This document shows positions 2,501 to 41,492 of a stretch of 64,000 bases of DNA, piece by piece. Within the stretch, counting starts at the first letter, position 1. Each line of letters starts with the position of its first letter. The stretch is from a bacterium (GTDB lineage Bacteria; Electryoneota; Electryoneia; Electryoneales; Electryoneaceae), in assembly GCA_963675295.2 (NCBI GenBank), contig CAXXKJ010000002.1:2368001-2432000 (forward strand), in the 5' to 3' direction. Below the pieces are notes generated by a model, which saw nothing but the letters and a program-made list of their open reading frames with translations, had not been told where the DNA came from and made no database searches. Made by a program: the position numbers and the translations under genes.

Positions 2501-2549
2501 AGTGATGAGTTGTGAGTTGTGAGTGGTGAGTAAAAACAACTGACAACAC
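2501..2549. repeat. Heptamer tandem array A with inverted arm
   Basis: AGTGATG AGTTGTG AGTTGTG AGTGGTG AGTAAAA, then ACAACTG ACAAC, which is complementary to the left arm. Confidence 0.75.
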
Positions 2550-2600
2550 CCTTGGATTGGTCGTGAGATCCGTTAACTGGTTTTGGTTACGTGAAGCGAA

Positions 2601-3695
2601 GTGATGCGTAAACACACGAAAATACTGGTTGCCGTTGCGTTTCTGGTCGCACTCGTTCCGTTTGCAGAGGGGCAGGAGCTGTTCCAGATTCTCGGCGGGC
2701 AACGTGTCGGCACCTCGGCGATGACGTTCCTCAAGATTCCGGTCGGTGCTCGTGCGGAAGCGATGGGCGGTGCGTATGTCGCGGTGGCGAACGATCCGTT
2801 CGCGGTGTTCTGGAATCCAGCCGGGATTGCACAGATCGGCACGCGTTGGCAGGGCAAGTACGTCGTCGATCCGAACAAGGCGCCGGAAGGGGTGAAAGCC
2901 CCGCCGAGCACGCTGCAGCGGCTGTTCACCGGCGACCGTGCGATCGGCATGGTGCGGAACAACTGGATCGCGGAGATCAGTTACGACGCGCTGGCGTACA
3001 CCCAGCCGTTACCAATTGGTACCCTCGGCATCATGGCGGCCAGCCTGACCACGGCCGACATGGAGATCACCACTGAGTACCATCCGGACGGTACCGGTGA
3101 GTATTTCAGCTACAGCGACATGCTGCTCGGCGTCGGGTACGGTCTCGCGATGACGGACAACTTCAGCTTCGGTGTCACCGCGAAGTATGCTCGTGAAGTG
3201 TTGGCCGATACGCAGATGGAAAACGTGATGCTCGACCTCGGGACCTACTACTGGACCGGGTGGCGGGATCTGCGACTGGCGGTGGCGTTGATGAACTTCG
3301 GCCCGAACACGAAGCCGGATGGTACGTACATCACGACGGATGCCGAAGGCGATGAACTCGAGAAGAGCTTCAAGGCCTACAGTCCGCCGGTTGAGTTTCG
3401 TCTCGGCGCGGCGTATTCGCCGATTGCGATCGACCAGCACAAGCTGCTTGTATCGATGCAGCTGAACCACCCGATCGACAACGCGGAGAACCTGAAGCTC
3501 GGCGCGGAGTATGGATTTGCCGGGATGTTGTTCCTGCGTGGCGGGTACAAGATCAACACGGATGAAGACCGTTACACGATCGGCGCGGGTGTCCGTGTGC
3601 CGGTGGGCAATGTCGCCCTGAGCGCGGATTACAGCTACACCGACTTCGGCATTCTCGACCAGAGCCAGCGTTTCAGCCTGGGCCTGACGTTCTGA
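2601..3695 (+). CDS. PorV/PorQ-family (UPF0164-like) outer-membrane beta-barrel
   Basis: Signal peptide, FLKIPVGARAEAMGGAYVAVANDPFAVFWNPAG motif, C-terminal FSLGLTF. Confidence 0.85.
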   Translation: MMRKHTKILVAVAFLVALVPFAEGQELFQILGGQRVGTSAMTFLKIPVGARAEAMGGAYVAVANDPFAVFWNPAGIAQIGTRWQGKYVVDPNKAPEGVKAPPSTLQRLFTGDRAIGMVRNNWIAEISYDALAYTQPLPIGTLGIMAASLTTADMEITTEYHPDGTGEYFSYSDMLLGVGYGLAMTDNFSFGVTAKYAREVLADTQMENVMLDLGTYYWTGWRDLRLAVALMNFGPNTKPDGTYITTDAEGDELEKSFKAYSPPVEFRLGAAYSPIAIDQHKLLVSMQLNHPIDNAENLKLGAEYGFAGMLFLRGGYKINTDEDRYTIGAGVRVPVGNVALSADYSYTDFGILDQSQRFSLGLTF

Positions 3696-5284
3696 TGGAA
3701 TCGAACATGAACCACCTCTTGAAGTTTTCGACTCTGACGTTGCTTCTCGCCAGCCTGATGCTGTCTGGTTGCGTGGATGAACCGGACCTGCCGACGAGCA
3801 TCAACAACTCGGATGATTTCGGCGCCAACGACACATCGTTTGTCCGTGTCGCACCGGACTGGAGCAACGGGCAGGGCTACGACTGGGACAATCCGGGCGA
3901 AATCCACATCGCGCGTGACGGGTACATGTACATCGCGGACGAGAAGGACGGCGGCCGTGTGACTCAGTTGAAACTTGACGGATCGATTGTTGACCGGTCA
4001 CTGTTCCAGGAAGTGATCGACACGACCGGGCGTGCGCCGGTGGGATTGGGTCAGTGCTCGAAGCTGAATTTGTACATGGTGGACGGGTCCAACATCATCT
4101 ATGCCCGCAACACTGCGGTGGAATACTTCGGGATCGACGAGGTGATTGTTTCGTTTGAAATGATCGATCTGCGGACTGGCGACCGTTACACCATCGACAA
4201 CAGCCGGCCGGTGTTTGAACAGTTACTGGACCTGGTGAATGATGGTATCGACAGCCTGGCGACGGATTACAACACAGTCGTGACCACGTCGGACCCGGAC
4301 ACGCTGGCGCGCTATGAACGCGAGTATGTTTTCCTCGCGGATACCACCGGCGAACACCCGAGTGAATTCACCGATATCGACGGTGGTCCTGCCGGTGAAG
4401 AGGTTGTGTACCTTGCGGATCAGGGGAATGACCGGATCGCCACGTTCCTGATCGCGACATCGCGTGTGCTGTTCCTGAAGGATGGCAGTGTCGCCTACGC
4501 GTACGCCGGCTTGCACCTCAACGACACGGTGGAATTCGGGTCGGGGCAGGTGTCGACGAACAACCCGACGAGTATTGTCACCACCGGCAGTGGCACGAGC
4601 ACACGGCTGTATTTCACGCAGGTGGACGGCAACTTCCTGTTCCAGCGGCTGCGGCCGTCCGGGGACTCGTGGCAGTTTGATGTTGCGGCGAGCGGTGACG
4701 GGCCGCCATTGATTGAGCTGGACTATTTCGGCGCACCGGTTGGAGTCGCGGTTGGCGAGAGCGACGAGTACGGCCTCGGCTTGATCTATGTCGCGGATTC
4801 GTTGCAGAACCGTGTGACAGCGTTTTATTCTGGCGGCGCGACGTTCCGTCATGTCGCCGCGGAAACCGAGCTGGTCGATCTCGAGCCGGGCGAATACATC
4901 GTGGATGCGCTCGACGCGTTGGGGATTGAGTGGTATCCAGACATCAACCAGGAGCTGATCGGGTACTATTCTGGTGAGACGGTTGATGTGGAAGTTTCGG
5001 AAGGCCAGACGATCTCGGAAGCGGTTGCGGCGGCGGGCTATGAGTTCGATCCGCTGCTGAATCCGGACCTCAACCCGGACGCGACGGTCGCGGAGGCGAC
5101 GGTGATCAGTGTCCGAATCCCGATTGCGACCACGGTCGAGGTGTCGCTGCCAACGCTGGACAAGCCGCGCGGGGTGGCGACGCGGGACGGTGTTGTCTAC
5201 ATCACCGACTCCGGTCACAATCGGATTGTGCGGTACAGCCGCAGCGACTCGGACAGCTACATCCCGAATGATCCGAACTATTGA
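3695..5284 (+). CDS. Lipoprotein with NHL-like beta-propeller repeats
   Basis: Lipobox MLSGC; NHL-like motifs VYLADQGNDRI, IYVADSLQNRV, LDKPRGVA..VYITDSGHNRI; start overlaps the porV-like stop. Confidence 0.75.
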   Translation: MESNMNHLLKFSTLTLLLASLMLSGCVDEPDLPTSINNSDDFGANDTSFVRVAPDWSNGQGYDWDNPGEIHIARDGYMYIADEKDGGRVTQLKLDGSIVDRSLFQEVIDTTGRAPVGLGQCSKLNLYMVDGSNIIYARNTAVEYFGIDEVIVSFEMIDLRTGDRYTIDNSRPVFEQLLDLVNDGIDSLATDYNTVVTTSDPDTLARYEREYVFLADTTGEHPSEFTDIDGGPAGEEVVYLADQGNDRIATFLIATSRVLFLKDGSVAYAYAGLHLNDTVEFGSGQVSTNNPTSIVTTGSGTSTRLYFTQVDGNFLFQRLRPSGDSWQFDVAASGDGPPLIELDYFGAPVGVAVGESDEYGLGLIYVADSLQNRVTAFYSGGATFRHVAAETELVDLEPGEYIVDALDALGIEWYPDINQELIGYYSGETVDVEVSEGQTISEAVAAAGYEFDPLLNPDLNPDATVAEATVISVRIPIATTVEVSLPTLDKPRGVATRDGVVYITDSGHNRIVRYSRSDSDSYIPNDPNY

Positions 5285-5290
5285 GTCGGC

Positions 5291-5344
5291 AAGTACAAAG
5301 TCGAAAGTCGACTGAGCACTGACCACTGACGACTGATCACAGTC
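5291..5344. repeat. Heptamer tandem array B
   Basis: AAGTACA AAGTCGA AAGTCGA CTGAGCA CTGACCA CTGACGA CTGATCA in one continuous 7-nt register. Confidence 0.75.
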
Positions 5345-5353
5345 TTTTCACCT

Positions 5354-5380
5354 CCCCGGCTTGCGTACAGGCCGGGGTTT
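5354..5380 (+). terminator. Probable intrinsic terminator
   Basis: CCCCGGC...GCCGGGG stem followed by TTTGGTTT. Confidence 0.5.
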
Positions 5381-5401
5381 GGTTTACTTCGGGGAGGTCG
5401 C

Positions 5402-5562
5402 GGGCTCTGGGCTGTAGGATGTTGGCTGCGGACTGCGGGCTACGGTCGGCGGTCACTGACCACAGACCACAGACCACTGAGTACCGAATACCGAATACCG
5501 AGTACCGAGTACCGAGTACCGAGCACCGTTTACCGACAACGTCCCGATCACCAACACTGACC
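5402..5562. repeat. Heptamer tandem array C
   Basis: GGGCTCT/GGGCTGT/GGACTGC/GGTCGGC block, then ACTGACC, ACAGACC x2, ACCGAAT x2, ACCGAGT x3, ACCGAGC, ACCGTTT. Confidence 0.9.
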
Positions 5563-5570
5563 GGACCCAC

Positions 5571-6758
5571 ATGCACGACGCTCTGATCCATTCCGACGCC
5601 GGCATTCTGTTTGTCCTCGCGGCCAACGCTGCGTTGTGGTTCTTCCTCGAAAAACGCACCGGCTGGAAGTTGTTCAACTTCATGCCGCCGTTGATCTTCA
5701 TCTACCTGCTGCCGGCGGTGTTCAGCAACACCGGCCTGATCTCCGGGCATTCGGAGGTGTACGGCTGGATGGGGGACAACATCCTGCCGATGTTCCTCGT
5801 GCTGCTGATGCTGGACGTTGACCTCAAGGCGACGATTCGTGTGATGGGCAAAGGTGTGTGGGTGATGCTGATCGGTACGCTCGGGGTTGTCATCGGCGCG
5901 CCGCTCGGGTTCCTCGCGGTGTCGCACTGGCTGCCGAGCGAAACGTGGATGGGCTACGCGATCCTCAGCGGGTCGTGGATCGGCGGCACGGGCAACATGG
6001 CGGCGGTGCAGAACGCCATCGACCCGACCGGCGAATTGACCGGCGGGCTGTTCGGGCTGGCGGTGATCGCGGACAATGTGGTGTACCTGGTCTGGCTGCC
6101 GTTGCTGCTGAACCTGAAACGTCTCGCGCCGATCTTCCATAAATTTACCGGCGTCACCGACCAGCACCTGGACAAGATGAAGGCGGCGGCGCAGGAGATG
6201 GTGGTCGAGAAGGGCAAGCCGGCGATGCGGGATTACCTCTACCTGATCGCGATCGGGATGGGGGCGACCTGGCTCGCGGCAACCCTGTCGAATTTGCTGC
6301 CGGTGGTCGAACCGGTACTGACGCCGGGCACGTACAAGATCCTGCTGGTGACAACGTTCGGGATCGCGTTGTCGTTCAGCCCGGCGAAGAAGATCCCGGG
6401 GTCGCACGAAATCGCGATGGCGCTGGTGTACCTGTTTGTCAGCCGGATGGGCGCAAAGACTGATGTCAGCGGGCTGGCGGGCATGGCGATTCCGTTTGTG
6501 GCGGGCGCGTACATCTGGATCTTCATCCACGGCGCGTTTATCTTGCTCGCGGCGAAACTGTTCAAGATCGACGTGCACACCAGCGCGATTGCCAGCGCGG
6601 CGAATATTGGCGGTGCGGCGAGCGCGCCGATTGTCGCGTCCTTCCACGACGAACGGCTGGTTCCAGTCTCGATCCTGATGGCGTTGATCGGGTACGCGGT
6701 CGGGAACTACGCGAGTCTGCTGCTGGTCCGGCCGCTGTTGATGCTGGTGGCGGGGTAG
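5571..6758 (+). CDS. DUF819/YjcL-family multi-pass membrane protein
   Basis: About 11 hydrophobic segments; GSWIGGTGNM and SAANIGGAASAPIVA motifs. Confidence 0.85.
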   Translation: MHDALIHSDAGILFVLAANAALWFFLEKRTGWKLFNFMPPLIFIYLLPAVFSNTGLISGHSEVYGWMGDNILPMFLVLLMLDVDLKATIRVMGKGVWVMLIGTLGVVIGAPLGFLAVSHWLPSETWMGYAILSGSWIGGTGNMAAVQNAIDPTGELTGGLFGLAVIADNVVYLVWLPLLLNLKRLAPIFHKFTGVTDQHLDKMKAAAQEMVVEKGKPAMRDYLYLIAIGMGATWLAATLSNLLPVVEPVLTPGTYKILLVTTFGIALSFSPAKKIPGSHEIAMALVYLFVSRMGAKTDVSGLAGMAIPFVAGAYIWIFIHGAFILLAAKLFKIDVHTSAIASAANIGGAASAPIVASFHDERLVPVSILMALIGYAVGNYASLLLVRPLLMLVAG

Positions 6759-6902
6759 CTGCACCTCATCAGATTGGCGGGAAGATGAGGTTTGTTTTAC
6801 CTTAGGGTCAATCGGACTACCGAACAGGAACAGACATCAGGCACGGGCCGCAGGGATGGAGCTGGTTTGAGGCTCTGTCCGGGTAACCATGGATAGGCTG
6901 CC

Positions 6903-7178
6903 ATGCACGACATCGGGGGTTTGTTTATGATGGACTTCATTTTCTGGGGATCGGCGATCCTGCTGGCGTTGGCGTTGTTCTTCTTCGTAATTGCGCCGTT
7001 GATCTTCAGTTCCGCGAAAGTGGTGTCGATGTACGCCGGGCTGCCGTTGCTGGCGTTGGCGTTGATCGTGGTCGGCTACAAGGTCGGCGGACCGGTGGGC
7101 TGGGTGATTGTGATCGCCGGTGTCGGGGTCGGGATCTACTCGTACATCTACTTCAAGGAGAAGTTGTACGAGGAATAG
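6903..7178 (+). CDS. Small hypothetical membrane protein (about 3 TM; alternative start 6927)
   Basis: Three hydrophobic helices; codon usage typical of neighbouring genes. Confidence 0.6.
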   Translation: MHDIGGLFMMDFIFWGSAILLALALFFFVIAPLIFSSAKVVSMYAGLPLLALALIVVGYKVGGPVGWVIVIAGVGVGIYSYIYFKEKLYEE

Positions 7179-7182
7179 GACA

Positions 7183-7434
7183 GTCTCTCGTCTCTAGTCT
7201 CTCGGTGGTTCGCAACAGACGCAACAGACGCAACAGACGCAACAGACGCAAGAGACGCAAGAGACGCAACTGATGCAAAAGAAGTAACAGAAAGTAACAG
7301 AAAGTAAAAGACAGGAAAAGAAAGTAAGAGAAAGCAGAAGAAGCAAAACCACTGACCACTGACCACTGACCACTGACCACTGACCACTGACCACTAATTA
7401 CCGATTACCGATTACCGATTACCGCCAACCGGCC
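7183..7434. repeat. Composite 7/9/10-mer tandem array D
   Basis: GTCTCTM x3, 9-mers CGCAACAGA x4 and CGCAAGAGA x2, 10-mers AGTAACAGAA-like, ACTGACC x6, ACCGATT x3. Confidence 0.95.
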
Positions 7435-7670
7435 TCCTGCAAAGCTCTCCCGAGTTGCGTAACGGCTGTGACAGTCCTACACTTCGCGCATGATCTCCCG
7501 CATGTAACATACCTCGCCGCCTGAGTTCACGACGGCCCAAGCTTCCACGGCGCAGTCCTGCGTCTGTGGGGTTCCTGTTTGCAGTACATTTTCTGGCGAA
7601 TCCGGTGTGTAAAACCGGAGGAACCGTGCTCCATGTGAGCAGATCCATCCATGTTGGGAGAGTTTACATC

Positions 7671-8519
7671 ATGTGTACATCGATAAATGGAGTGATACAG
7701 CATCAGTTCGACGCCTCAACGCTGTGGTCCGGGGCCTTCAAGATTCCGTGGCACGACCGTGAATTCGGACGGCGGATGCTGCGTGAACACCTGAGCCAGG
7801 ACCATCAGCTCGCCAGCAGGAAGGCGGAGATGATCGAAGGTCAGGTGGAGTGGATCGACCAGCATACCGGCGCGGGAACATCGCGCAACCTGCTCGACCT
7901 CGGCTGCGGGCCAGGGCTCTATGCGCGGGCATTCGCGGAACGTGGCTTCGAGTATCATGGCATCGACATCTCGCCGGTGTCGATTGAGTACGCGTGTGAA
8001 CAGTTCGCGGACGCCGGCACGTTTGCGGCGGCGGATATCCGTGACGCCGAGTTCGGGACGGACCGGGACGTGGTCTCGTTCATTTACGGCGAGTTCAACG
8101 TGTTCTCGGAGGCGGATGAGCGGCGGATTCTGCGGAAGGCGTGGGACGCGCTCAAGCCCGGCGGTCATCTGCTGATCGAGGTCCAGACGTACGATGCGGT
8201 GAAGGGCGTTGGCAGCCTGCCGCCATCATGGTATCGTGGCGGGGCAGGGGTAAGCGGCCTGTTTTCGGAGCAGCCGCACCTGGTGCTGATGGAAAATCAC
8301 TGGGTCGAGGAGGCCGAAACCGCAGTGCAGGAGTTTTTCGTGCTGCACGGCGGGTCCGAGTCCGAGATGCAGGTGTACCGGAATACCTCGAGTGCGATCA
8401 CCGATGATGTGATGGCGGCGATGCTACGCGAGTCCGGGTTTGCGGATGTGGCGTTTCCGTCGGATTGGCCGGTGCCGGATGAGGCGCTACGGCTGGTGGT
8501 GGCGCGGAAACAGCGGTAG
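7671..8519 (+). CDS. Class I SAM-dependent methyltransferase
   Basis: LLDLGCGPG, GIDISP, LKPGG motifs; GGGAG RBS before ATG 7671. Confidence 0.9.
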   Translation: MCTSINGVIQHQFDASTLWSGAFKIPWHDREFGRRMLREHLSQDHQLASRKAEMIEGQVEWIDQHTGAGTSRNLLDLGCGPGLYARAFAERGFEYHGIDISPVSIEYACEQFADAGTFAAADIRDAEFGTDRDVVSFIYGEFNVFSEADERRILRKAWDALKPGGHLLIEVQTYDAVKGVGSLPPSWYRGGAGVSGLFSEQPHLVLMENHWVEEAETAVQEFFVLHGGSESEMQVYRNTSSAITDDVMAAMLRESGFADVAFPSDWPVPDEALRLVVARKQR

Positions 8520-8621
8520 TCGGTTGTCGGTAATCGTTGCTCGGTAAACCAGTTGCGGGGACACTTTAGGGACAAAGTGTCCCCGGCTTTGCTCACAGCT
8601 CATCCCTCATCGCTCAAAGCT
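8515..8621. repeat. Heptamer array E enclosing a 12-bp-stem palindrome
   Basis: GGTAGTC GGTTGTC GGTAATC..., then CGGGGACACTTT-AGGGAC-AAAGTGTCCCCG (8556-8585), then GCTCACA GCTCATC CCTCATC GCTCAAA. Confidence 0.7.
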
Positions 8622-8860
8622 GCTTTTCCACTTGTGAATTCCCTCTCAAGGGAGCACTGTCAATCTCGGTGTGAGTTGCCCGTGACAGGCGTTGTTCGTA
8701 CGTTTCGGCAAAATCCCCACCGTGTTCTGTTACCAATCATTCCCGTCCGCGTCAGGCTGTGAGCGGCTTCGGCACAGGGCGATCGTCAAAACGGTCCCTC
8801 AGTGCGTCGAAGCGAGTCATCGTGCGCTCTGCACGTGAACGGGCAAAAGGGAGATGTGAT

Positions 8861-10108
8861 ATGGCGATCGTGAAGCCATTTCCGGGCCTGCGCCCACGCA
8901 AGGATGTCGCCGCGAAGGTGGCAAGTCCGCCGTACGATGTGCTCAACTCTGAAGAAGCGCGTGAGATGGCCGCGGGAAACGAGATCAGTTTCCTGCATGT
9001 GAACAAGCCGGAAATCGACCTTCCGCCAGACACCGATCCCTACGATGACGCGGTCTACGCGCAGGGCCGTACGAACCTGCACAAGTTGATCGATGATGGC
9101 GTGCTCCATCGTGACAGCGAACCGTGCTTCTACCTCTACGCGCAGACTTGGGGCTATCACCGTCAGGTGGGCCTGGTCGCGGCAGCGAGTGTGCAGGAGT
9201 ATATCGACGACAAGATCAAGAAGCATGAGCAGACGCGGGAGAAGAAGGAACGCGACCGAGTCCGTCACATCGAGGCGTTGGGCGCGCAGGTTGGCCCGGT
9301 GTTCCTGACCTACAAAGCGAATCCGGACATCGACACGTTGTTCCGTACGATTCAGCAGGGCGAACCGGATTACGATTTCGAAGCCGATGACGGCATCCGT
9401 CACACGCTTTGGGTGGTCGGCAGCAAGAAGCGGATCGAGGCAATTTCGCAGATGTTCAGCAATGTGCCGCTGCTGTATGTCGCGGACGGTCACCATCGCA
9501 GCGCGGCGGCGACGATTGTCTGCCAGAAGCGTCGTGACGAACGGTCGACGTTCGATCCGATGGAGCCGTGGAACTTCTTCCTCAGCGTGATTTTCCCGCA
9601 TGATCAGATGAAGATCCTGCCGTACAACCGAGTTGTGCGTGACCTGAATGGGTTGTCGGAAACGGCGTTCATGGAAAAGGTGATGGAGAAGTTTGACGTC
9701 ATGGACTCGGCGAAGGGTGTCGAGCCGGAGGCGAACAAGCTGTTCGGGATGTACATGGACGGCAAGTGGTACAAGCTGGCGGCGAAGAAGGGCACGTTCG
9801 ATCCGGACGACGCGGTTAATAGCATCGACTCCGCGATTCTACAGAACAACCTGCTGCAGCCATTGCTCGGCATCGAGAATCCGCGTACCGACGAACGGAT
9901 CGATTTCGTCGGCGGCATCCGTGGCATCAAGGAGCTGGAGAAGCGGGTCAACAGCGGTGAGATGAAGGTGGCGTTCAGCCTGCACGCGACGACCATCGAG
10001 CAATTGATGAATGTCGCGGACGCCGGCAAAAACATGCCGCCGAAGTCGACGTGGTTCGAGCCGAAACTGCGCAGCGGGCTGGTGATTCACGAGATCGGGG
10101 ATCGGTGA
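8861..10108 (+). CDS. DUF1015 family protein (ParB/Srx-like DGHHR motif)
   Basis: SPPYDV, IKKHEQT, YVADGHHRSAAA and MPPKSTWFEPKLRSGL motifs; GGGAG RBS. Confidence 0.9.
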   Translation: MAIVKPFPGLRPRKDVAAKVASPPYDVLNSEEAREMAAGNEISFLHVNKPEIDLPPDTDPYDDAVYAQGRTNLHKLIDDGVLHRDSEPCFYLYAQTWGYHRQVGLVAAASVQEYIDDKIKKHEQTREKKERDRVRHIEALGAQVGPVFLTYKANPDIDTLFRTIQQGEPDYDFEADDGIRHTLWVVGSKKRIEAISQMFSNVPLLYVADGHHRSAAATIVCQKRRDERSTFDPMEPWNFFLSVIFPHDQMKILPYNRVVRDLNGLSETAFMEKVMEKFDVMDSAKGVEPEANKLFGMYMDGKWYKLAAKKGTFDPDDAVNSIDSAILQNNLLQPLLGIENPRTDERIDFVGGIRGIKELEKRVNSGEMKVAFSLHATTIEQLMNVADAGKNMPPKSTWFEPKLRSGLVIHEIGDR

Positions 10109-10116
10109 GGGAAAGA

Positions 10117-10284
10117 CAGTCTTCAGTAGTCAGTTCTCAGTGCTCAGTGAAAGACAGAAAAAGACAGTTCTGAGTGATGAGTAGTGAGTGGTGAGTAAAG
10201 ACGAAAGACGAAAGACAGTCCTGAGTCTTGAGTCCTGAGTCCTGAGCAGAAGACAAAGGACGAAAGACGAGCGACGAGAGACGG
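10117..10284. repeat. Heptamer tandem array F
   Basis: CAGTNNT x4, GAGTRRT x3, GACGAAA x2, GAGTCYT x3, GACGANN block. Confidence 0.9.
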
Positions 10285-10365
10285 TTGTACGTCTTTGATG
10301 TTGACGGAAACCCAACGCAACGAAACGTAAGAGTTCGCATAAACCCCACAAATCGGGAGGCGGAG

Positions 10366-11463: not shown

Positions 11464-11468
11464 AAAGC

Positions 11469-11559
11469 GGGCTATGGGCTGTAGGCTATAGGCTATGGGC
11501 TGTAGGCTATGGGCTATGGGCTGTAGGCTATGGGCAACTGGCTGTGGGCCATAGGCTTG
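11469..11559. repeat. Heptamer tandem array G (RGGCTRT, 13 units)
   Basis: GGGCTAT GGGCTGT AGGCTAT AGGCTAT GGGCTGT... in an unbroken 7-nt register. Confidence 0.95.
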
Positions 11560-11580
11560 ACCGCTGGTAGACAACAGATT

Positions 11581-11607
11581 GTCATCCTGAACGCAGTGAA
11601 GGATCTC
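11581..11607. repeat. REP-like palindromic element (GTCAT-type)
   Basis: GTCATCCTGAACGCAGTGAAGGATCTC; shares the GTCAT end with the elements at 41576, 41678 and 47696. Confidence 0.5.
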
Positions 11608-11647
11608 GGTGTTCGGGATGATGCAAGATGATAGAGGAGTGGAAACG

Positions 11648-12562: not shown

Positions 12563-12589
12563 TGAAGTGGCGCGTAAGTAGATGAAAAC

Positions 12590-12626
12590 AAAGCACGTAG
12601 GGGTTGTAACTCCTGCGTGCTTTTTT
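12590..12626 (+). terminator. Intrinsic terminator of the ser operon
   Basis: AAAGCACGTAGGGGTTGTAACTCCTGCGTGCTTTTTT hairpin with U-tract. Confidence 0.8.
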
Positions 12627-12748
12627 GGTTTCGAGGAGAGGCAAAAATTTTCAAGATGTGACTTGGATAACACGCAAATCAGAAATGTAAGTCTTACCTT
12701 ACCCGCGGGTGTGTTAACAAACAGGTCATGAAACTGGAGTACGGAACT

Positions 12749-14962: not shown

Positions 14963-14964
14963 AG

Positions 14965-15041
14965 CAGTCTTGAGTCTTGAGTCCTGAGTCTTGAGTAAAA
15001 GACAAGAGACGAAAGACGGAAGACGACACAACGAAACACGG
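14965..15041. repeat. Heptamer tandem array H
   Basis: CAGTCTT GAGTCTT GAGTCCT GAGTCTT GAGTAAAA GACAAGA GACGAAA GACGGAA. Confidence 0.85.
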
Positions 15042-15077
15042 TCATTGACTCAGACATGAGTCTTTGCGTGGAATGAT

Positions 15078-15111
15078 AGCCCGGCGAGGCGTTGCTTCGC
15101 CGGGCTTTTTT
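15078..15111 (+). terminator. Intrinsic terminator
   Basis: AGCCCGGCGAGGC-GTT-GCTTCGCCGGGCT followed by TTTTT. Confidence 0.85.
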
Positions 15112-15286
15112 GCGTATAGTTGTCGCCTGTTCGAGCCGGATTGGTGCCGGTCTCGCTTGGTCCCTTGATCTCTTGACAGTCGATTCCGGTTCCACGTACC
15201 TTCGGGTCTGTGCGTACCTGCGGCCTTGGTTTTCGGGGCTGCGTTTTTTGTGGCATCTTGAGTCCCGGGTGACGCATGGAGGTTTG

Positions 15287-15360: not shown

Positions 15361-15423
15361 CCGGGTGCGGCGGGAGCTGGTGACCGTCGGCCAAGACAAG
15401 CGCGGCGCGACCCGCGGCGGAAT

Positions 15424-15783: not shown

Positions 15784-15788
15784 CAGCC

Positions 15789-21214: not shown

Positions 21215-21499
21215 TGACTACGGACTACGGTCGGTGGTTGGCGGATTACGGACTGCGAACATACAAGGTACGGATTGAGATTGACCACCTGATGACCCCA
21301 GACATGAATGTCTGGGGCATTTTGGTAGATGTGAGATTTGAGACGTGAGATTTGAGATTTTAGATGTGAGATGTGAGATGTGAGATGTGAGACTAAAGAT
21401 CAGAGATGTAAGACCACAGGCCAAACTCGGCCACTGATCACTTACACTCACGCCGACCGCTGAAAACCGTTTACCGGCTACTGATAACCGTTTACAGCA
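21215..21499. repeat. Heptamer array I enclosing a palindrome
   Basis: GGACTAC/GGTCGGT block, CCCCAGACAT-GA-ATGTCTGGGG (21296-21317), about 14 AGATGTG-type units, ACCGTTT block. Confidence 0.9.
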
Positions 21500-27165: not shown

Positions 27166-27221
27166 GGTAGTCGGTAATCGGTAATCGGTGATCGGGTTCC
27201 GATTGTCGGTAATCGGTGATG
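27166..27221. repeat. Heptamer tandem array J (GGTAATC-type)
   Basis: GGTAGTC GGTAATC GGTAATC GGTGATC GGGTTCC GATTGTC GGTAATC GGTGATG. Confidence 0.85.
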
Positions 27222-34533: not shown

Positions 34534-35186
34534 CGTAAATCAAACACGGTCGCGCTCTCCGGCGGCGTGTACTGAAACCGTGAATCCTCGAGTTGGACGT
34601 TCATTTCGACGTCGGTCAGCTGGTACACGGTCTGGTTGCCGGCATCATCGCGGAACGAGATCCGTTGGGTGATCCAGCGTGTGCCGTCAATGGTGACGGT
34701 GACATCGCTGACACCCAGTCCCTGTTGCTTTGGGGATAAGGTCAGTTCGTAAACATCCTCGCTGGTCTGTTTGACCGCGGCGACGTTGAACTGTTTCGGG
34801 AAATCGAACAGGAAGTCGCGTGGCAGGGAACCGGGATCGGCCTCGGCAGCGTTCTCGACAATCGCCTGGTCGCTGCCGGTGTTGTAGCGCCACAGGGTGT
34901 TGCCGTCGCAGGCAACGACCTGGTGGTCAGTCTGGTAAAGGAAACGGTCATCCCCGGCGAGCAGCATTGAACCTTCGCTGACCTCGGTTTCACCCGCCAG
35001 TCCCCACTGGAATTCCTGCCGGAAGGAGGCGGAGAAGGTGTCCATCTTCTCGTAGGTTTTCTGCACCTTGCGTATGATCTCGTCGCCGGACGGTGGCTTG
35101 GCAACGCTGGAGGAAATCGCGCTGAACGTGGCGAGGGCCACGGCCAGCAGTGTGACGACAACGCGGTGCGCACGTGTGGTTTTCAT
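34530..35186 (-). CDS. lolA: Outer-membrane lipoprotein carrier protein LolA
   Basis: Signal peptide, FSASFRQ, DGNTLWRY, FQYTPP..VFDLR; downstream of ftsK. Confidence 0.85.
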   Translation of the reverse strand: MKTTRAHRVVVTLLAVALATFSAISSSVAKPPSGDEIIRKVQKTYEKMDTFSASFRQEFQWGLAGETEVSEGSMLLAGDDRFLYQTDHQVVACDGNTLWRYNTGSDQAIVENAAEADPGSLPRDFLFDFPKQFNVAAVKQTSEDVYELTLSPKQQGLGVSDVTVTIDGTRWITQRISFRDDAGNQTVYQLTDVEMNVQLEDSRFQYTPPESATVFDLR

Positions 35187-35196
35187 GCCGCCATCC

Positions 35197-37614
35197 TCAC
35201 TCGGATTCGCCTTCCAGATTGATCAGGAACGAATCCACCTGGTCTTCGCTGATGTAGACTTCACGGGCCTTGGAGCCTTCGAACGGGCCGACGACGCCGG
35301 CCATCTCGAGCTGGTCGAGCAGGCGTCCCGCGCGGCTGTAGCCGATCTTCAGCCGACGCTGCAGCAACGATACGGACCCTTGCTGGTGACGCGCTACGAC
35401 TTTCACCCCTTCGGGGAACAAAGGATCCCGGTCGCCGGCGAGGTCGCCTCCGCCGCCGGATCCGCCGCCTTCTTCTTCCGGCGACTTCAGTTCAACCTGC
35501 TTGACGAACGCCGGTTGCTTGCGCACATGCGCGATCAACTTGTGGACTTCATCGGTTGAGATGAATGCCCCGTGGAAGCGGATCGGTGTCGGGGACGCGT
35601 TGGACAGGAACAAACCATCGCCGCTGCCGAGCAGTTTTTCCGCGCCAGCCCGGTCGAGGATGGTGCGGCTGTCGATCTTGGACGCGACCATGAACGCGAT
35701 CCGTGCCGGGAAATTGGCTTTGATCACGCCGGTGATGACGTCCACGGATGGGCGTTGCGTCGCGACGATCAGGTGTATCCCGACGGCGCGTGCCATCTGC
35801 GCAAGACGGGCGATCGGTTCCTCGACCTCGCGCGCGGCGACGATCATCAGGTCGGCGAGTTCGTCGATGATGACCACGATGTGCGGCAGCGGCTTCAACG
35901 GTTCGTTGTCGCCATTTCCGTTACCGTTGCCGTCGTCGCCATTCCCATTGTCCTTCGCTTCCTTGAGCCGGTCCTGCACGATCTTGTTGAACTCTTTCAG
36001 GTTGCGCGCGCCGGTTTCGGCGAGCAGATCGTAGCGGCGTTCCATCTCGAGCACGACGGATTGCAGCAACGCGACGGCGTTCTTCGGCTCGGTGGCGATG
36101 ACCTCGTTCAACGCTTCGAGGAACAGCAGGTGATGGCGTCGAAGCTCGGAATAGGCGCTGAGTTCGATCTTCTTCGGGTCGATCATCACCAGCTGGACTT
36201 CGTCCGGCCGGTTGCGCATCAGAATGCTGGCGATAACGGTGTTGATGCAGACCGATTTACCGGAACCGGTGGTCCCGGCGATCATCAGGTGCGGCATTTT
36301 GCCGAGGTCGACGATGAGTTCGTCCCCCTGCGCCGTCTTGCCGAGGGCGATGGAGAGGGGACGGCGTGTCGAGGCCCACTCGGCGGACTCGATGATGTCT
36401 CGCAGGTAGACGACGTCTGCGCTCTCGTTCGGGACTTCGATCCCGACCGCGCCTGCGCCGGGTATGGGTGCGATGATGCGGACCGCGACGGCGGAGAGGC
36501 TCATCGCGAGGTCGTCCGCGAGGTTCGAGATGCGGCTGACTTTAACGCCCTTGGACGGCCGCAGGTCATAGCGTGTGATGACTGGGCCGGGGTGGATCGC
36601 GACGACATTGGCCGCGACGCCGTAATCGCTGAGGCGTTCCTCGAGTTCCTTTGCCCGGCTGCGGAGCTCGTTCTCGTCCCACTCGACTTCGCCCGTGTCT
36701 TCCGAGGCAACCAGCAGCTCGGAGGAGGGGAGGACAAAGTCCTCGGGACGGGCCTTCGGGTCGCCATTCAAATCCTTCGGACCGGTCTTTTTGTCGGATT
36801 CTGCTGGTGTTCGCACGATCTCCGGCATGCCCGACTTGAATTCGTCCCAGTCGGCTTCGTCGTCGTCCAGGTCAAGGTCGAGATTGTCCGATGGAGGCGG
36901 ATCGGGCGGAGATTTCTTGCCGGGTGCGACCTTGGGTTCCGGTTTCGGACGGATCTTCGGTTTCGGTTTGCGTTCCGGCAGCTTGATCATGCTCGCGAGC
37001 GCGGCGAGGCCGGCGCCGGTAACATGCAGGATGTCGCCCCAGCTGATGCGGAGCACGAGGGTGATGTGGATCAGTGTCAACGCCGCCAGCAGCAGCGCCG
37101 CGCCGGTGATGCCGAGGAAATTGACCAGCAGGGTTTGCAGCCCGATCCCGATCAGGCCGGTCATCTCGGAGGAGTCGGGCATGCCCTGTACCAGGCGCAC
37201 CCATGACCAGATGGCGACGGCGAGGATGCTCGCGGTGAGGATCGGGAGCAGTTGGCGCTTGAGGATACGCTGCCCTTTGCCGCGCAGCAGATCGAGCCCG
37301 CCGTAGAAAAGGAACAGTGGCAGGATCAGCGACAGGAACCGTCCGAAGGTAAATTCGGAGAGGTAGAAGGCGATGTTCGCTCCGAACGGACCGAGCAGGT
37401 TTTGCACTTCCGATCCGGTGCGGCTACCCTTGGGGAAGTCATGGGCATTGTAGCTGAGCAGCGCGACGGTGATCATCGCCGCGAGAGTGATCAGCACGAT
37501 GCCAAAGACATCCTTGACCCGCGAGCCGTCGGAACCTGATCCCTTTTTGGCTTTCGAGACAGGTTTCTTTTTCGCAGGCTTTCGTTGCGTAGCTTTGGTC
37601 TTCGCTTTCGGCAT
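35197..37614 (-). CDS. ftsK: DNA translocase FtsK
   Basis: 4TM N-domain, PHLMIAGTTGSGKS, IDELADLM, ATQRPS, gamma domain LQRRLKIGYSRA. Confidence 0.97.
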   Translation of the reverse strand: MPKAKTKATQRKPAKKKPVSKAKKGSGSDGSRVKDVFGIVLITLAAMITVALLSYNAHDFPKGSRTGSEVQNLLGPFGANIAFYLSEFTFGRFLSLILPLFLFYGGLDLLRGKGQRILKRQLLPILTASILAVAIWSWVRLVQGMPDSSEMTGLIGIGLQTLLVNFLGITGAALLLAALTLIHITLVLRISWGDILHVTGAGLAALASMIKLPERKPKPKIRPKPEPKVAPGKKSPPDPPPSDNLDLDLDDDEADWDEFKSGMPEIVRTPAESDKKTGPKDLNGDPKARPEDFVLPSSELLVASEDTGEVEWDENELRSRAKELEERLSDYGVAANVVAIHPGPVITRYDLRPSKGVKVSRISNLADDLAMSLSAVAVRIIAPIPGAGAVGIEVPNESADVVYLRDIIESAEWASTRRPLSIALGKTAQGDELIVDLGKMPHLMIAGTTGSGKSVCINTVIASILMRNRPDEVQLVMIDPKKIELSAYSELRRHHLLFLEALNEVIATEPKNAVALLQSVVLEMERRYDLLAETGARNLKEFNKIVQDRLKEAKDNGNGDDGNGNGNGDNEPLKPLPHIVVIIDELADLMIVAAREVEEPIARLAQMARAVGIHLIVATQRPSVDVITGVIKANFPARIAFMVASKIDSRTILDRAGAEKLLGSGDGLFLSNASPTPIRFHGAFISTDEVHKLIAHVRKQPAFVKQVELKSPEEEGGGSGGGGDLAGDRDPLFPEGVKVVARHQQGSVSLLQRRLKIGYSRAGRLLDQLEMAGVVGPFEGSKAREVYISEDQVDSFLINLEGESE

Positions 37615-38384: not shown

Positions 38385-41318
38385 ATGGTTCGTGGTCTCC
38401 TGGCGGCAGCGCTTGTGATGCTTATTGCCGGTCAGGCGAGCGCACGACTCTATCCCTCAGAGTTTCGCTGGATGGAATTCCGTTCCGGCAATGTGCTGGT
38501 CTATTACCCGCAGGGGTATGACTCGCATGCGAAGATGCTTGCGCTCAGCGGGCATACGTGGCTCGACAGCCTCGATTCGTGGTACGAGACCCGTCCGAAC
38601 TACGCGCGCATCGTGCTCAATCCGGAGAAGGACCGCAGCGAGGCGATGGCGGTGATCAACCCGACCCGGATCGAGTTGCCGATCGCGCCGGTGCTGGACA
38701 AGGGGATTCGTCCACAGGGCTCGCTGTACCTCGATCGTGTCACCGCGCACGAGTTGACGCATGTGTACCAGATGGGGCTGCGTACCGGAATCAGCCGCTA
38801 CTTGTGGCCAGTGTTCGGCGAGGCGATTGCTCCGGCGGCGCTGGCACCGGACTGGTTGCTTGAGGGGCAGGCGATCTGGACGGAATCGGTGGATGGCGGT
38901 GGACGGCTCCATTCGTCGTACCAGAGCATGATCATGCGTACGCAACTGGCGCAGCATGGCAAATTCTGGCCATTAGACCGCAATGCCGCAGCCGGACGAG
39001 TGAACCCGCCATTGAACCGGGCGTACACGGGCGGCGCGTTCCTGTACGGGTCGATGGCGTCCGAGTACCTCGGGTACCGTCACATCAACGATCTGATGGC
39101 GGAGCAGGCAGCGTGGCCCGGGTTGATGGATTGGAACTTCCGCCGCGCCTACATCGGCCGTACGGTCAGCGATCACTGGACCGCGATGGAGCGGGCGTGG
39201 CGTGACCAGCTTCGTCCCCGGATGCAGCGGCTGTATCAGTTGGGGTATGCGGTCGGGACACGATTGCTCGAGGCTCCGCGTACGTCCTACCGCCACCCGC
39301 AATGGACGGTCGAAGGCGAACTGGTGGTAAGCGAGGATTCATATGATCGCCCTAACCGTGTGGTGATGCTGTCGCAGGGGCCGGACTATGCTGAACGGCC
39401 GGTCGCGTGGACGGGATATTCGGCGCATGAGGGCGTGTCGCCGTTCCTCGAAGGGGTGATCGTGTCGGAGATCCGGCGTGACCTGTGGACGGCGGAGAAA
39501 ACGGAATCGGTGCTGGTGCTGGTGACCCGGGATGGACGTGTCAGCGACATGGCGGAGGGTGGCCTCAACGGTTGGGCGCCGGCGTTTCACACCGAATCGA
39601 TGCGATTGGCCTACGTCGGTCCACTTGAGGGCGGAGGCATGGGGCTGTGGGTCGCACCGCTGGGCATCAACGGCAAGGTGACGGGCGAAGCGGTGCTGCA
39701 CATGAGCACGATCCTCGGCTCAATCAACGACCCGGCGTGGAGCCAGGATGGCAAGCTGCTCGCGTTCGCGGCGGATCTTGGCGAAGGCGAGGCTGTGTAC
39801 GTGCTCGAGCTGGCGAAGCACAAAATGACGCGGGTCCGGATCGAGGGAGCGAATGCAACGTGGGATCCATCGTTCGGGCCGGGACGGAACTTGTGGGTGT
39901 CGGCGGACCGGGACGGCATCTTCAACCTGTACGAAGTCGAGCTGGATTCCGTTAGCGCGACAAAACGCACACGTGTGATCACCGGCGCAATGGAACCGGC
40001 GGTGTCTGCGGATGGCAGCCGTGTCGCGTATTCGCACTATACCAGCGACGGATTCTCGACGGCGTTGCTGGATTCCTCCCGTTGGTTGAACGATCCGGCG
40101 GGTGTGCAGGTGGAAGCGATCTCGGTGGCGGCGTTCGCAGAGCAGGATTCGTTGTTGAATCCCGTCGTGTTCGGGGAAACGTGGACCTATTCACCGCTGT
40201 CGCACCTGAAACCGAACTACGCGATGCCGGTCTACGCCAACGGCGACGAGGCCGGGGTCGGGCTCAGCGTGTACGGACGCGATCCAGTCGGGTTGCTGTC
40301 GTGGAGTGTGACGAGCCGGTTGGGCCTGGAATCTTCCCAACCGGATCTTGCTGCGACGGTCACCTATCGCGACCTGCCGGTGGATGTGTCGTTAAGCGTG
40401 ATTAACTACCCCGATGAATATCCGGAGTGGTCGCGGGCGACGGACGGAAACGGAAACCCGGTCGCGGTGCGGGACTATGTCTGGAAACGGCAGTGGGATT
40501 CCGGGTTGACCGCGTATCAGCCAATGTACTTCGACCACGGCCCGTGGCGAACCTCGGCGGTCCCGTTCGCCGGGCTGACCCATCGCATGCGCTACATCCA
40601 GACATCGCTCGATAAGGGCCTGGAAACGGCCGGGTATCTCGGAATCCGGCTGGGTGGAACGGTGACGCGGTATTTCTCGGCGTTACGAGATCCGGTACCG
40701 AGCCACCTGGAGTCGTTCCGGGTGATGGCGGAGGGCAATCTGCCCGGCCCGGAGCTTGAGGCGGAACTGCTGGAACTCAGCGCGCGCAAGCATGTGCCGG
40801 GACCGTTCACGAGCACGGTGTTCTCGTTCCGGGCGGCGGCGCAGATCCGGAATGGAGACCTGGACTTTTCGCGCTCGAGCGTGCGTCCGCGCGGCTACAG
40901 CGACGATAGCCTGCCGACGGCGTTGAAGGCCAACGGACGGATGGCGCTGGCCGGTGCGGAGTTTCATTTCCCGCTGTTGTATGTCGATCGTGGCTGGCCG
41001 GGATCGGGAACCATCTTTGTCGAACGGTTGACCGGATCGGTGTTCGCGGACGGCGCTACCGGCTGGGGCGGGGATTTGTCGATACCGGACTGGGCGGATG
41101 AGTATGGTGTTGCATCGTTTGGCGCAACGGTCGGCTTGCGCGGCTACCTGCTGTTCCAGGCGGAAACGCAGGTCGATGTGGGGGTTGCGTGGCGCACCGA
41201 ATACCAGAACGCGGCGGTGTTTGTCAACCTCAGCTTCCCGGAATTGTTTGCATTTGTCAACGATGCGCCTGACTGGCGGGATCTGACCCGTCGTCCCGCA
41301 CGGGGAGTGGGGCATTGA
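38385..41318 (+). CDS. Exported multidomain protein: zincin-like (HExxH) + TolB/PD40 propeller + Omp85-like barrel
   Basis: Signal peptide; AHELTH and WLLEGQA; PAWSQDGK, PSFGP, PAVSADG; C-terminal amphipathic strands with PRGY; ORF open from 38325. Confidence 0.7.
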   Translation: MVRGLLAAALVMLIAGQASARLYPSEFRWMEFRSGNVLVYYPQGYDSHAKMLALSGHTWLDSLDSWYETRPNYARIVLNPEKDRSEAMAVINPTRIELPIAPVLDKGIRPQGSLYLDRVTAHELTHVYQMGLRTGISRYLWPVFGEAIAPAALAPDWLLEGQAIWTESVDGGGRLHSSYQSMIMRTQLAQHGKFWPLDRNAAAGRVNPPLNRAYTGGAFLYGSMASEYLGYRHINDLMAEQAAWPGLMDWNFRRAYIGRTVSDHWTAMERAWRDQLRPRMQRLYQLGYAVGTRLLEAPRTSYRHPQWTVEGELVVSEDSYDRPNRVVMLSQGPDYAERPVAWTGYSAHEGVSPFLEGVIVSEIRRDLWTAEKTESVLVLVTRDGRVSDMAEGGLNGWAPAFHTESMRLAYVGPLEGGGMGLWVAPLGINGKVTGEAVLHMSTILGSINDPAWSQDGKLLAFAADLGEGEAVYVLELAKHKMTRVRIEGANATWDPSFGPGRNLWVSADRDGIFNLYEVELDSVSATKRTRVITGAMEPAVSADGSRVAYSHYTSDGFSTALLDSSRWLNDPAGVQVEAISVAAFAEQDSLLNPVVFGETWTYSPLSHLKPNYAMPVYANGDEAGVGLSVYGRDPVGLLSWSVTSRLGLESSQPDLAATVTYRDLPVDVSLSVINYPDEYPEWSRATDGNGNPVAVRDYVWKRQWDSGLTAYQPMYFDHGPWRTSAVPFAGLTHRMRYIQTSLDKGLETAGYLGIRLGGTVTRYFSALRDPVPSHLESFRVMAEGNLPGPELEAELLELSARKHVPGPFTSTVFSFRAAAQIRNGDLDFSRSSVRPRGYSDDSLPTALKANGRMALAGAEFHFPLLYVDRGWPGSGTIFVERLTGSVFADGATGWGGDLSIPDWADEYGVASFGATVGLRGYLLFQAETQVDVGVAWRTEYQNAAVFVNLSFPELFAFVNDAPDWRDLTRRPARGVGH

Positions 41319-41329
41319 ACGGCAGGTGT

Positions 41330-41492
41330 GAGTGATGAGTGGTGAGTAAAAGACAGTCTTGAGTCCTGAGTCTTGAGTCTTGAGAAAAAACGAAAGACAA
41401 TGACCACAGACTACAGGCCACAGGCCACAGGCCACAGACCACAGACCAAAGACCAAAGACCAAAGACCAAAGACCAAAGACCAAAGATAAAA
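41330..41492. repeat. Heptamer tandem array K
   Basis: GAGTGRT x2, GAGTCYT x3, GRCYACA x6, GACCAAA x6. Confidence 0.95.

Follow-up and report, generated by a model that had tools for sequence, protein, structure and literature searches.

Heptanucleotide arrays at the gene ends of an uncultured bacterium share one register, follow the strand of the nearest gene, and favor a module of four TGAG cores

Why should many intergenic spaces of one bacterial genome be occupied by tandem repeats of exactly 7 nt, and why should units of the same vocabulary return at distant loci in an orderly orientation? The question was raised by a stretch of 64,000 nucleotides (G000:C2:2368001-2432000, referred to here as the window) from a genome of 4.81 Mb in two contigs, with 58% G+C and a completeness of 92.8%. 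An initial annotation of the window had pointed out 11 intergenic tracts of 7-nt units and had proposed that they arose through a templated or mobile repeat-building process or that they represented a 3′-untranslated RNA element bound by a protein with a 7-nt footprint. Short tandemly repeated repetitive (STRR) sequences are tandem, dispersed, intergenic heptamers of heterocystous cyanobacteria, and in the 2007 work of Mrazek on long simple sequence repeats (SSRs) the heptamer is said to be the commonest unit in many genomes. To our knowledge, no function or cause has been established for bacterial heptamer repeats. The arrays described here are a lineage-specific bloom of heptanucleotide arrays of the STRR or long-SSR kind in untranslated DNA at gene ends; they lie mostly between a stop codon and a hairpin, and their length changes in place by whole 7-nt units. 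The host is probably a deep-branching uncultured bacterium of the Calditrichota/Ignavibacteria/Bacteroidetes group with type IX secretion genes, because its FtsK has its nearest named relatives, at ∼50% identity, in metagenome-assembled genomes of Calditrichota, Ignavibacteria, and Bacteroidetes; the window proteins include, according to Pfam, a TonB-dependent receptor, a PorV-like protein, and two proteases that end in type IX secretion tails.

Tandem Repeats Finder (TRF) returned 61 rows for the window, 23 with period 7 and five with period 14, and arrays of period 7 (or 14/21) were found at all 11 of the places noted at first, i.e., at 2506–2531, 5297–5340, 5424–5536, 7183–7204 (with 7348–7431), 8514–8547, 10130–10283, 11469–11557, 14966–15026, 21216–21230 (with 21327–21413), 27166–27195, and 41329–41487. 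The two genome-wide checks proposed in the initial annotation, TRF and period-7 autocorrelation, both gave a strong signal. Period 7 is the most frequent TRF period of the genome (630 of 2910 rows), exact self-match runs number 274 for period 7, two for period 5, and three for period 8, and a mismatch-tolerant autocorrelation detector found 386 period-7 blocks in the genome compared with eight in locally shuffled sequence. The corresponding values for the genome and the shuffled sequence are 5 and 13 for period 5, 8 and 12 for period 8, and 17 and 6 for period 11, so that these periods are at the level of the shuffles or exceed it only modestly. Using gene calls from a home-made codon-bias caller (3122 genes; coding fraction 0.81–0.86), we found 354 of the 386 blocks to be mostly intergenic, as the tracts of the window had appeared to be, and 252 spacers to carry arrays. 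Contigs of four public runs (two samples from one study) cross the arrays at 5291–5540, 11469–11557, and 14966–15026 with 0 differences, and because three arrays of the window are thus reproduced exactly, the arrays are not assembly artefacts, an explanation that the initial annotation had named as fatal to its view. The assembly itself may derive from one of the two samples, and the public-run DNA contigs end at several arrays, like unitigs at repeats. Head-to-tail 7-nt units, a dispersed excess in noncoding DNA, and whole-unit length variation between relatives were all observed, as in heptanucleotide long SSRs and STRR sequences.

The 386 blocks are built from 96 units counted independently of strand, of which 44 occur once and the commonest at 10 to 24 loci each (CTCTCGT at 24, CCTGAGT at 22, CAGTGGT at 19, GAGGTGT at 18, and GAGCTGT at 16), and the recurrence of the same units at distant loci, first noticed in the window, therefore holds across the genome. 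This vocabulary reduces to a single register, NN-T-S-R-G-N, with five stable and two hypervariable positions. When 164 stop-adjacent units were read in gene sense, with the rotation chosen by expectation–maximization, they fell into one register, N-S-T-S-R-G-N (T 95%, G 89%), which carries 5.18 bits of information compared with 3.54 (maximum 3.64) in ten sets of shuffled units, and 346 of 557 non-overlapping TRF arrays fit it. Among 1002 pairs of neighboring units, the first two positions differ in 26% and 37% of the pairs and the other five in 3 to 6%, where choosing the phase by T and G biases those two columns and leaves the S, R, and last columns unbiased. A register-free test of 201 arrays placed 76% of the mismatches in one adjacent pair of phases versus 58% under a uniform null. 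The register is read on the strand that runs 5′ to 3′ away from the nearest gene.

Of the 392 convergent spacers 97 carry arrays, as do 140 of the 1848 tandem and 15 of the 393 divergent ones. In the 140 tandem spacers the first block begins a median 9.5 nt past the stop codon, and at or before +10 in 75 of them, so that the early impression of tracts starting close to stop codons is borne out; 163 of the 3122 gene ends have a block starting −12 to +25 nt from the stop. Past stop codons it is the mRNA-sense strand that is rich in G: of the blocks lying no more than 25 nt from a stop, 145 have more G than C on that strand, 12 have more C than G, and three are neutral. Next to start codons the bias is reversed and weaker (C>G 29, G>C 14, neutral 2). 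The strand of an array is set by the nearest gene, whatever the direction of replication, because the sense-G rule holds in all four classes formed by skew-defined chromosome half and gene strand (25/6, 37/6, 33/3, and 47/0). The arrangement of G-led units on the left and C-led units on the right, which had been reported for the window, is confirmed as a rule that refers to the nearest gene end (145 versus 12), since the G-rich strand of each array runs 5′ to 3′ away from that gene, but not as a property of a two-ended element. As for the skew itself, contig C2 has a GC skew of about +0.05 to +0.10 over 0.38–2.46 Mb and about 0 elsewhere, with a cumulative skew that never falls; the window lies close to the switch at 2.46 Mb, and the 274-kb contig C1 has negative skew throughout.

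The arrays are also phased with the stop codon. Their first full core lies most often at +9 past the stop (27 of 153), and the offset modulo 7 is non-uniform (p = 4e-5). No post-stop seed motif was found in genes without arrays. Phase-variation SSRs were considered as a model and rejected: the arrays lie mostly past stops, not in promoters or 5′ coding sequence, and crude tests gave no bias toward surface or secreted proteins. By core, 84 of the 153 arrays next to stops are of TGAG type and 69 of TCAG, TCGG, or TGGG type, and seven genes supply the first core with their own TGA. One possibility is that the arrays are back-up stops, in which a TGA every 7 nt would close every reading frame within 21 nt and catch read-through or frameshifted ribosomes before the terminator. 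The share of TGAG-type arrays, the presence of TGA in the sense orientation and its absence from the antisense one, and the seven genes that lend their own TGA agree with this idea, whereas the 69 arrays of the other types have no stop in their core, the leader described below is CAG and not TGA, and periods of 4, 5, or 8 would be equally suitable yet are not enriched. The selective advantage to be expected would also be tiny, and we consider this explanation very improbable.

The commonest form of the arrays is a discrete module composed of an A-rich stretch, CAG, four TGAG cores 7 nt apart, and an A-rich tail. Exact TGAG runs at a 7-nt step contain three cores in 62 cases, four in 99, and five in 13, and in 851 kb of the relative G001 the numbers are 9, 24, and 1. 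In the logo of the 99 four-core modules, which were picked by their intact cores so that core conservation is built into both the logo and the spacer counts, an A-rich stretch is followed by the pseudo-core CAG (C 66%, A 88%, G 98%), which precedes the first TGAG by one step, and A reaches 83% at the third base past the last core. The base after GAG is constant within 69 of the 99 modules, while the following two bases vary; spacers are identical in 50 of 297 adjacent pairs, 66 of 198 next-but-one pairs, and 30 of 99 outermost pairs, and 72 of the 82 distinct module sequences occur only once.

A preference for four units calls to mind the G-quadruplex, in which four G-tracts make one quadruplex, the explanation put forward for GGGNATC repeats in Xanthomonas and Nostoc. 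The G-rich sense strand past stops and the four-unit preference are shared with those repeats as the available text describes them (PMC4692102), and GGGCTNN arrays do exist in the genome. The four-core preference resides, however, in TGAG units, which have no GGG tract (62/99/13), whereas TGGG runs show no such peak (10, 7, and 2 for three, four, and five cores) and TGGG-type runs make up only 41 of 388 runs; a GGG tract in every unit, as in the published repeats, was accordingly rejected as a description of these arrays. Most units, being without GGG, therefore cannot form quadruplexes, which cannot explain the four-unit preference in this genome. The quadruplex reading is already largely refuted for the majority of units, and as an account of the arrays in general it is hardly credible.

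A perfect GC-rich hairpin begins 6 to 20 nt past 17% of 174 modules compared with 4% of random intergenic points, and the order of stop, array, and terminator-like hairpin is seen in the window at 5284/5354, 14962/15078, and 21196/21296. The post-array hairpins belong to families resembling repetitive extragenic palindromic (REP) sequences, the GGGGACAC type being the largest. Several such palindrome families occur in the genome, the largest having the form GGGGACAC...GTGTCCCC, and they are often located downstream of arrays; perfect hairpins with stems of at least 9 bp number 917 genome-wide, of which 707 are intergenic. Folding between blocks was clearly better than that of shuffled sequences in 14960–15035 (z = −4.0) and 11464–11580 (z = −3.25) and marginal in 8517–8600 (z = −2.28), owing to its REP palindrome; three other regions were not better.

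Comparison with relatives points to rapid turnover. All four genomes of the genus carry arrays, with 261, 307, 292, and 68 matches to the four-core TGAG pattern, which has 0 matches in most of the family and is patchy in other families of the phylum (e.g., 163 in G078). The window is syntenic with G001 at ∼89% identity, and the flanks of the arrays are 88 to 100% identical. The arrays of G001 follow the same stops with other units (GAGTTGT versus GAGGTNT, ACCACTG versus ACCACAG, and RGGCTRT ×12.7 versus CAGTRSY), and one site has the same GAGTCYT units in both genomes with C and T swapped and a block duplicated. At 586 orthologous 3′ ends, arrays are present in both genomes in 24 cases, in G001 only in 27, and in the genome under study only in 13, counts that include a few paralogous mis-pairings (flank identity 71–80%) and treat below-threshold arrays as absent. 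Many of the ends with an array in one genome only have 1.5 to 2 units opposite 4 to 17 units between conserved flanks (e.g., 1.5 versus 4.5), and the differences in length look like whole-unit expansion or contraction in place. The best unit match at the 24 shared ends is 7/7 in four, 6/7 in nine, 5/7 in four, 4/7 in five, and 3/7 in two.

Such turnover would be expected of a functionless, non-adaptive by-product, in which heptamer SSRs slip and expand in unconstrained DNA and a transcription-linked bias fixes their orientation. Whole-unit changes between conserved flanks with remnants of 1.5 to 2 units opposite 4 to 17, fast gain and loss (five of five window sites are empty in the relative G002), patchy blooms (261–307 matches in three members of the genus and 68 in its fourth, against 0 in most of the family), the lack of gene-class bias, the sharp beginning at the stop, and an orientation set by the gene and not by replication are all in its favor, and the literature credits the heptamer excess to polymerase slippage in the passages available (PMC4692102 and PMC4679880, quoting Mrazek 2007). 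The sharp four-core TGAG mode (99 versus 13), which recurs in G001 (24 versus 1), the specific CAG leader and A-rich tail, the division into five stable and two hypervariable positions, and the finding that adjacent units are less alike than next-but-one units tell against it, because single-unit slippage with uniform mutation predicts neither the mode, nor the leader and tail, nor the position and spacer patterns. Replication slippage alone cannot explain the orientation of the arrays, and the initial annotation was right to hold that local slippage is insufficient by itself, given that orientation, the conserved core, and the fixed four-core modules are left unexplained by it. A by-product thus appears possible but somewhat doubtful, and the same is to be said of the mechanism that it would require, in which the nascent RNA past the stop is ribosome-free and the G-rich non-template strand favors RNA–DNA hybrids or slipped structures, leading to the expansion of G-sense arrays.

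Another possibility is that the modules were inserted or written past stops by a transposase, a reverse transcriptase, or a similar enzyme. They have defined ends and a fixed size, orthologous sites carry different unit families (GGGCTAT versus CAGTRSY; GAGTTGT versus GAGGTNT), a 1.2-kb methyltransferase cassette with inverted CGGTAAT arrays at both ends is absent from G001, and the genome has 12 matches to Y1/HUH transposases (Y1_Tnp), eight of them identical, and a single reverse-transcriptase gene. However, the common block order that had been claimed for the tracts did not hold, since no ordered pair recurs among 43 adjacent block pairs; these pairs resemble each other, in direct or inverted orientation, no more than random pairs do, a complementary arm lies within 114 nt of only two of the 138 TGAG arrays, and for the latter two reasons a REP/REPIN body or a miniature inverted-repeat transposable element was rejected. 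As many as 72 of 82 distinct module sequences are single, the length differences resemble unit steps in place, and the reverse-transcriptase gene has no arrays beside it. The comparison of orthologous spacers, which had been proposed as a check for empty sites, did show window sites that are empty in G002, yet neither a clean filled/empty pair nor a target duplication was seen. A mobile or templated origin is therefore quite improbable, and of the earlier interpretation it is the shared and polarized vocabulary that is supported and the repeat-building process that is not.

The arrays of the window illustrate these rules site by site, 11 of its 15 core runs having exactly four cores. At 2506..2531 (plus strand), TRF, the sequence, and the core run agree on a four-core TGAG module of the TGAGTTG type with a CAG leader and an AAAAAC tail, which starts 13 nt past the stop (2492) of the gene for the TonB-dependent receptor assigned by Pfam. 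The TRF array at 5297..5340 (minus strand), composed of AAAGTCG ×2 and then ACTGACC ×4 (TCAG ×4 on the minus strand, 5312–5336), lies directly past the stop at 5284 and is an exception to the sense-G rule. It is followed by a terminator-like hairpin with a T-rich tail (5354..5377, plus strand), a degenerate GGGCTNN array (5402..5452, plus strand, TRF), and, 35 nt upstream of the start at 5571, CACAGAC ×3.4 and GAGTACC ×8.3 (5454..5536, minus strand; TCGG/TCAG ×7 on that strand). The hairpin belongs to a stretch of ∼50 nt (5335–5390) between two array blocks that is identical in G001, while the arrays on either side differ; it sits within an outer CCTCCCCG/CGGGGAGG pairing and has no Rfam match. 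A search of Rfam 15 found only tRNAs at the gathering score in the window and no match at E ≤ 1 in 2400–15300. The relative G001 has, at about 35040–36140 of its contig C47, an AT-rich insertion of ∼1.1 kb with open reading frames (ORFs) that is absent from the window between 6758 and 6834.

From 5 nt past the stop at 7178, TRF found GTCTCTC ×3 (7183..7204, plus strand), and ACCACTG ×6.9 with ATTACCG ×4 was found at 7348..7431 (minus strand; TCAG ×6 and TCGG ×3 on that strand). Between these heptamer blocks sit purine-rich arrays of other periods, 9 (CGCAACAGA ×9) and 10 (AAAAGAAAGT ×6.7), at 7211..7348 (plus strand), which are partly retained in G001; in two members of the family, G008 and G004, purine-rich repeats of 7 to 10 nt lie past the orthologous stops where the present genome has heptamers. 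A CGGTAGT/CGGTTGT/CGGTAAT array (8514..8547, plus strand, TRF) runs over the stop (8519) of a methyltransferase gene recognized by Pfam, and next to it a REP-like palindrome of the GGGGACAC...GTGTCCCC family (8556..8585, strand not assigned) is followed by a four-core TGAG module identified from its core run (8592..8616, minus strand), which makes up the right arm around the palindrome. A 1.2-kb segment, 7395–8612, is missing from the syntenic site of G001; it contains the ATTACCG array, the S-adenosylmethionine-dependent methyltransferase gene (7566–8519), the CGGTAAT array, and the REP-like hairpin. As the gene is bracketed by inverted heptamer arrays, the difference could reflect array-mediated gain or loss.

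The remaining arrays lie on the plus strand. Past the stop at 10108, TCAG ×4, TGAG ×4, AAAGACG ×2.9, TGAG ×4, and GACGAGA ×3.6 follow one another (10123..10283), and RGGCTRT ×12.7, replaced in G001 by CAGTRSY units, begins 6 nt past the stop at 11463 (11469..11557). Past the stop at 14962, TGAG ×4 (GAGTCYT) and AAAGACG ×4.1 (14966..15026) form two blocks that pair as a periodic hairpin (z = −4.0), with a terminator-like hairpin and T tract downstream (15078..15106, plus strand); directly after this array and terminator (14966–15106) come four tandem tRNA genes at a spacing of ∼140 nt (15287–15783). At 21216..21413, GACTACG ×2.1 past the stop at 21196 is followed by a hairpin (21296–21317) and by GAGATGT arrays with two four-core runs. 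GGTAATC ×4.3 (TCGG ×4; 27166..27195) lies upstream of the start of a minus-strand gene and is antisense to it, and past the stop at 41318 the array at 41329..41487 consists of TGAG ×3, TGAG ×4 (GAGTCYT), and then GACCACA ×12.3.

What, then, might the module do? Slippage alone would hardly produce a fixed number of cores, defined ends, a core that stays stable between free spacers, and phasing with the stop codon, and we therefore infer that beside terminators the transcript, or the DNA being transcribed, is under a constraint. The explanation that we tentatively put first, with somewhat less than even confidence, is that the arrays are functional modules flanking terminators, whose reader would be a protein of heptad register or Rho acting on the C-rich antisense. 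The sense transcript would be an unstructured, C-poor G/U tract in which NAG recurs at 7-nt steps directly ahead of the terminator hairpin, a geometry that would suit oligomeric RNA-binding proteins such as HutP and would also match the footprint of one cold-shock domain (CSD). Transcription from the opposite direction would produce a U-tract and then a C-rich, G-poor tract, which could load Rho on polymerases entering the gene end. Slippage would supply the variation, and the constraint would act on core, orientation, and number. The other proposal of the initial annotation, a 3′-untranslated element with a 7-nt footprint, fits this array anatomy. In a more specific form, the four-core modules 2 to 10 nt past stops would be sites in nascent RNA or displaced DNA for a putative oligomeric NAG-reading protein that sets termination, read-through, or 3′-end stability at more than 100 gene ends, a proposal that in all its detail we consider unlikely. 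Like HutP- and TRAP-type targets, the modules have conserved NAG triplets at a constant distance from one another with variable bases between them, as the module logo and the spacer counts show.

Several observations weigh against the functional explanation. Selection and position-specific mutation are indistinguishable from the counts presented here, and the logo and spacer counts come, as stated, from modules picked by their intact cores. By the home-made gene calls, 44 of the 99 modules have no nearby stop on the same strand, 60% of the modules have no perfect hairpin within 120 nt, and the long perfect arrays, which reach 31 copies, resemble ordinary SSRs in their behavior. Conservation at orthologous genes does not extend past the closest relative: each of the five window sites compared is empty in G002 and in those of the examined family-level relatives that could be aligned, and in three other families a long sense ORF ends at the array in only two of 13 loci, in a crude test on loci of 3 kb. 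No gene-class bias was detected in crude tests based on a signal-peptide rule, type IX secretion-like C termini, C-terminal F, and protein length. Candidate readers are also scarce: neither HutP (PF09021) nor TRAP (PF02081) gave a match in the genome at E ≤ 0.1, and RRM proteins were rejected because RRM_1, although 53 of the 79 phylum genomes have it, occurs in 0 of 16 genomes of the family, including the present one. The genome has five CSD genes, which carry no arrays and show nothing specific, and the public runs listed for the organism include no RNA run. The gene for Rho lies within the window (31978–33234), and no evidence in the genome ties the csp, reverse-transcriptase, or Rho genes to the arrays.

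A wider occurrence of the module speaks for the functional explanation. The pattern of CAG, four TGAG cores, and NAAA has at least 115 matches in the species collection versus ∼0.07 expected by chance (our own estimate), and the matches listed come from Nostoc, Calothrix, Anabaena, Acidobacteriota, Nitrospira, Planctomycetota, Chloroflexota, Bacteroidota, Gemmatimonas, Chlamydiae, and proteobacteria. At 43 of 80 loci among the matches listed (L186–L265), an open frame of at least 50 codons ends within 40 nt upstream, most often at 2 to 5 nt. Among the 74 loci listed from outside the lineage, a complementary second arm is present at 33 with a threshold of ≥20/25 and at 26 with ≥25/31, and the paired-arm loci listed have an A-rich flank (0.42) before the first arm and a T-rich flank (0.40) after the second. 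These loci look like ∼30-bp hairpins of heptamers, shaped like bidirectional terminators; in the genome described here the arms are single, and a separate REP-like hairpin is often central instead. In G037, from another family, the TGAG arrays L157, L169, and L184 have a conserved upstream flank of ∼30 nt in common and are therefore part of a larger dispersed repeat.

Published heptamer repeats share much with these arrays. Rehm (2015) described GGGAATC and GGGGA(C/T)T repeats in Xanthomonas and Nostoc, whose G-rich strand is the coding strand within 50 nt past a stop or the noncoding strand upstream of an ORF, and what the available text reports of these SSRs, namely, intergenic location, rarity between divergent ORFs, preference for four units, occupation of the same loci with variable length and sequence between relatives, and no gene-class bias, is common to both systems (PMC4692102). 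The placement found here is of the same type (145 versus 12 at stops, 29 versus 14 at starts, 15 of 393 divergent spacers). Unlike the repeats of that description, the present arrays have many unit types instead of one, most of them without GGG; the preference for four units is found in the TGAG and not the GGG type, the CAG leader, A-rich tail, and two hypervariable positions are additional, and the lineage is another (PMC4692102). MacGregor (2015) reported TAACTGA direct repeats in marine Beggiatoaceae, cyanobacteria, and five Bacteroidetes, stated that one CspB binds one heptamer, and proposed a binder with a 7-nt footprint (Csp, S1, or CsrA) (PMC4679880). Those repeats are likewise intergenic, patchy across phyla, and mixed with other heptamers, and the TAACTGA unit is present in the genome; in Beggiatoa, as far as the available text goes, they lie mostly a few nucleotides upstream of starts in the forward direction, with a proposed role in translation, whereas the arrays studied here mostly abut stops (PMC4679880). 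The published units fit the TSRG core, GGGAATC as ATCGGGA, GGGGAYT as AYTGGGG (ACTGGGG among its forms), and the complement of TAACTGA as TCAGTTA. This fit is suggestive at most, because about one heptamer in five would match the core by chance (our own estimate).

The targets of HutP offer a different kind of comparison. On each of its faces HutP recognizes three NAG triplets at a 7-nt spacing, beside a terminator, and NAG triplets in a fixed register (7 nt for HutP), variable spacers, single-strandedness, and a neighboring terminator hairpin are common to the present modules and to HutP and TRAP targets in the available description (PMC2425495). The modules differ from that description in occupying more than 100 sites at 3′ ends and not one leader, in a genome with no HutP or TRAP homologue, and in constraining also the U before GAG and the base after it (PMC2425495). 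REP sequences and REPINs are, like the arrays, dispersed, extragenic, and often located at gene ends, and REP-like palindromes and Y1 transposase genes are present in the genome, but the arrays are direct repeats and not palindromes, with a complementary partner in two of 138.

The heptamer phenomenon, its polarity, and the preference for four units have thus already been published for other units (PMC4692102), as have patchy heptamers in Bacteroidetes (PMC4679880), with polymerase slippage, G-quadruplexes, or an unnamed binder as the explanations given in the passages available from the two papers. STRR sequences and long SSRs, as far as they are cited in these papers, are not described as having a polarity toward gene ends, one core in common, or modules of fixed size (PMC4692102 and PMC4679880), and a literature search, thin on subscription journals, turned up no account of heptamer arrays in this lineage, of a TSRG core shared among units, or of a four-core module. 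New in the present work are the lineage, the single register of a vocabulary of many units, the hypervariable dinucleotide, the four-core TGAG module with its leader and tail, the phase with the stop, the independence from replication, and a four-unit preference without quadruplex potential. The rule set found in this genome, with one core, two free positions, a strand set by the gene, and a fixed, stop-phased module of four cores, is cleaner than those of the published cases, and the occurrence of the module pattern in many phyla suggests that the answer may be a general one. The module matches listed span many phyla, about half of the loci studied lie just past an ORF, and pairing as a long hairpin is seen in a third to nearly half of them; if the more specific proposal of a NAG-reading protein is true, the same reader or constraint would therefore explain the dominance of heptamers among long bacterial repeats, including the puzzle of the STRR sequences.

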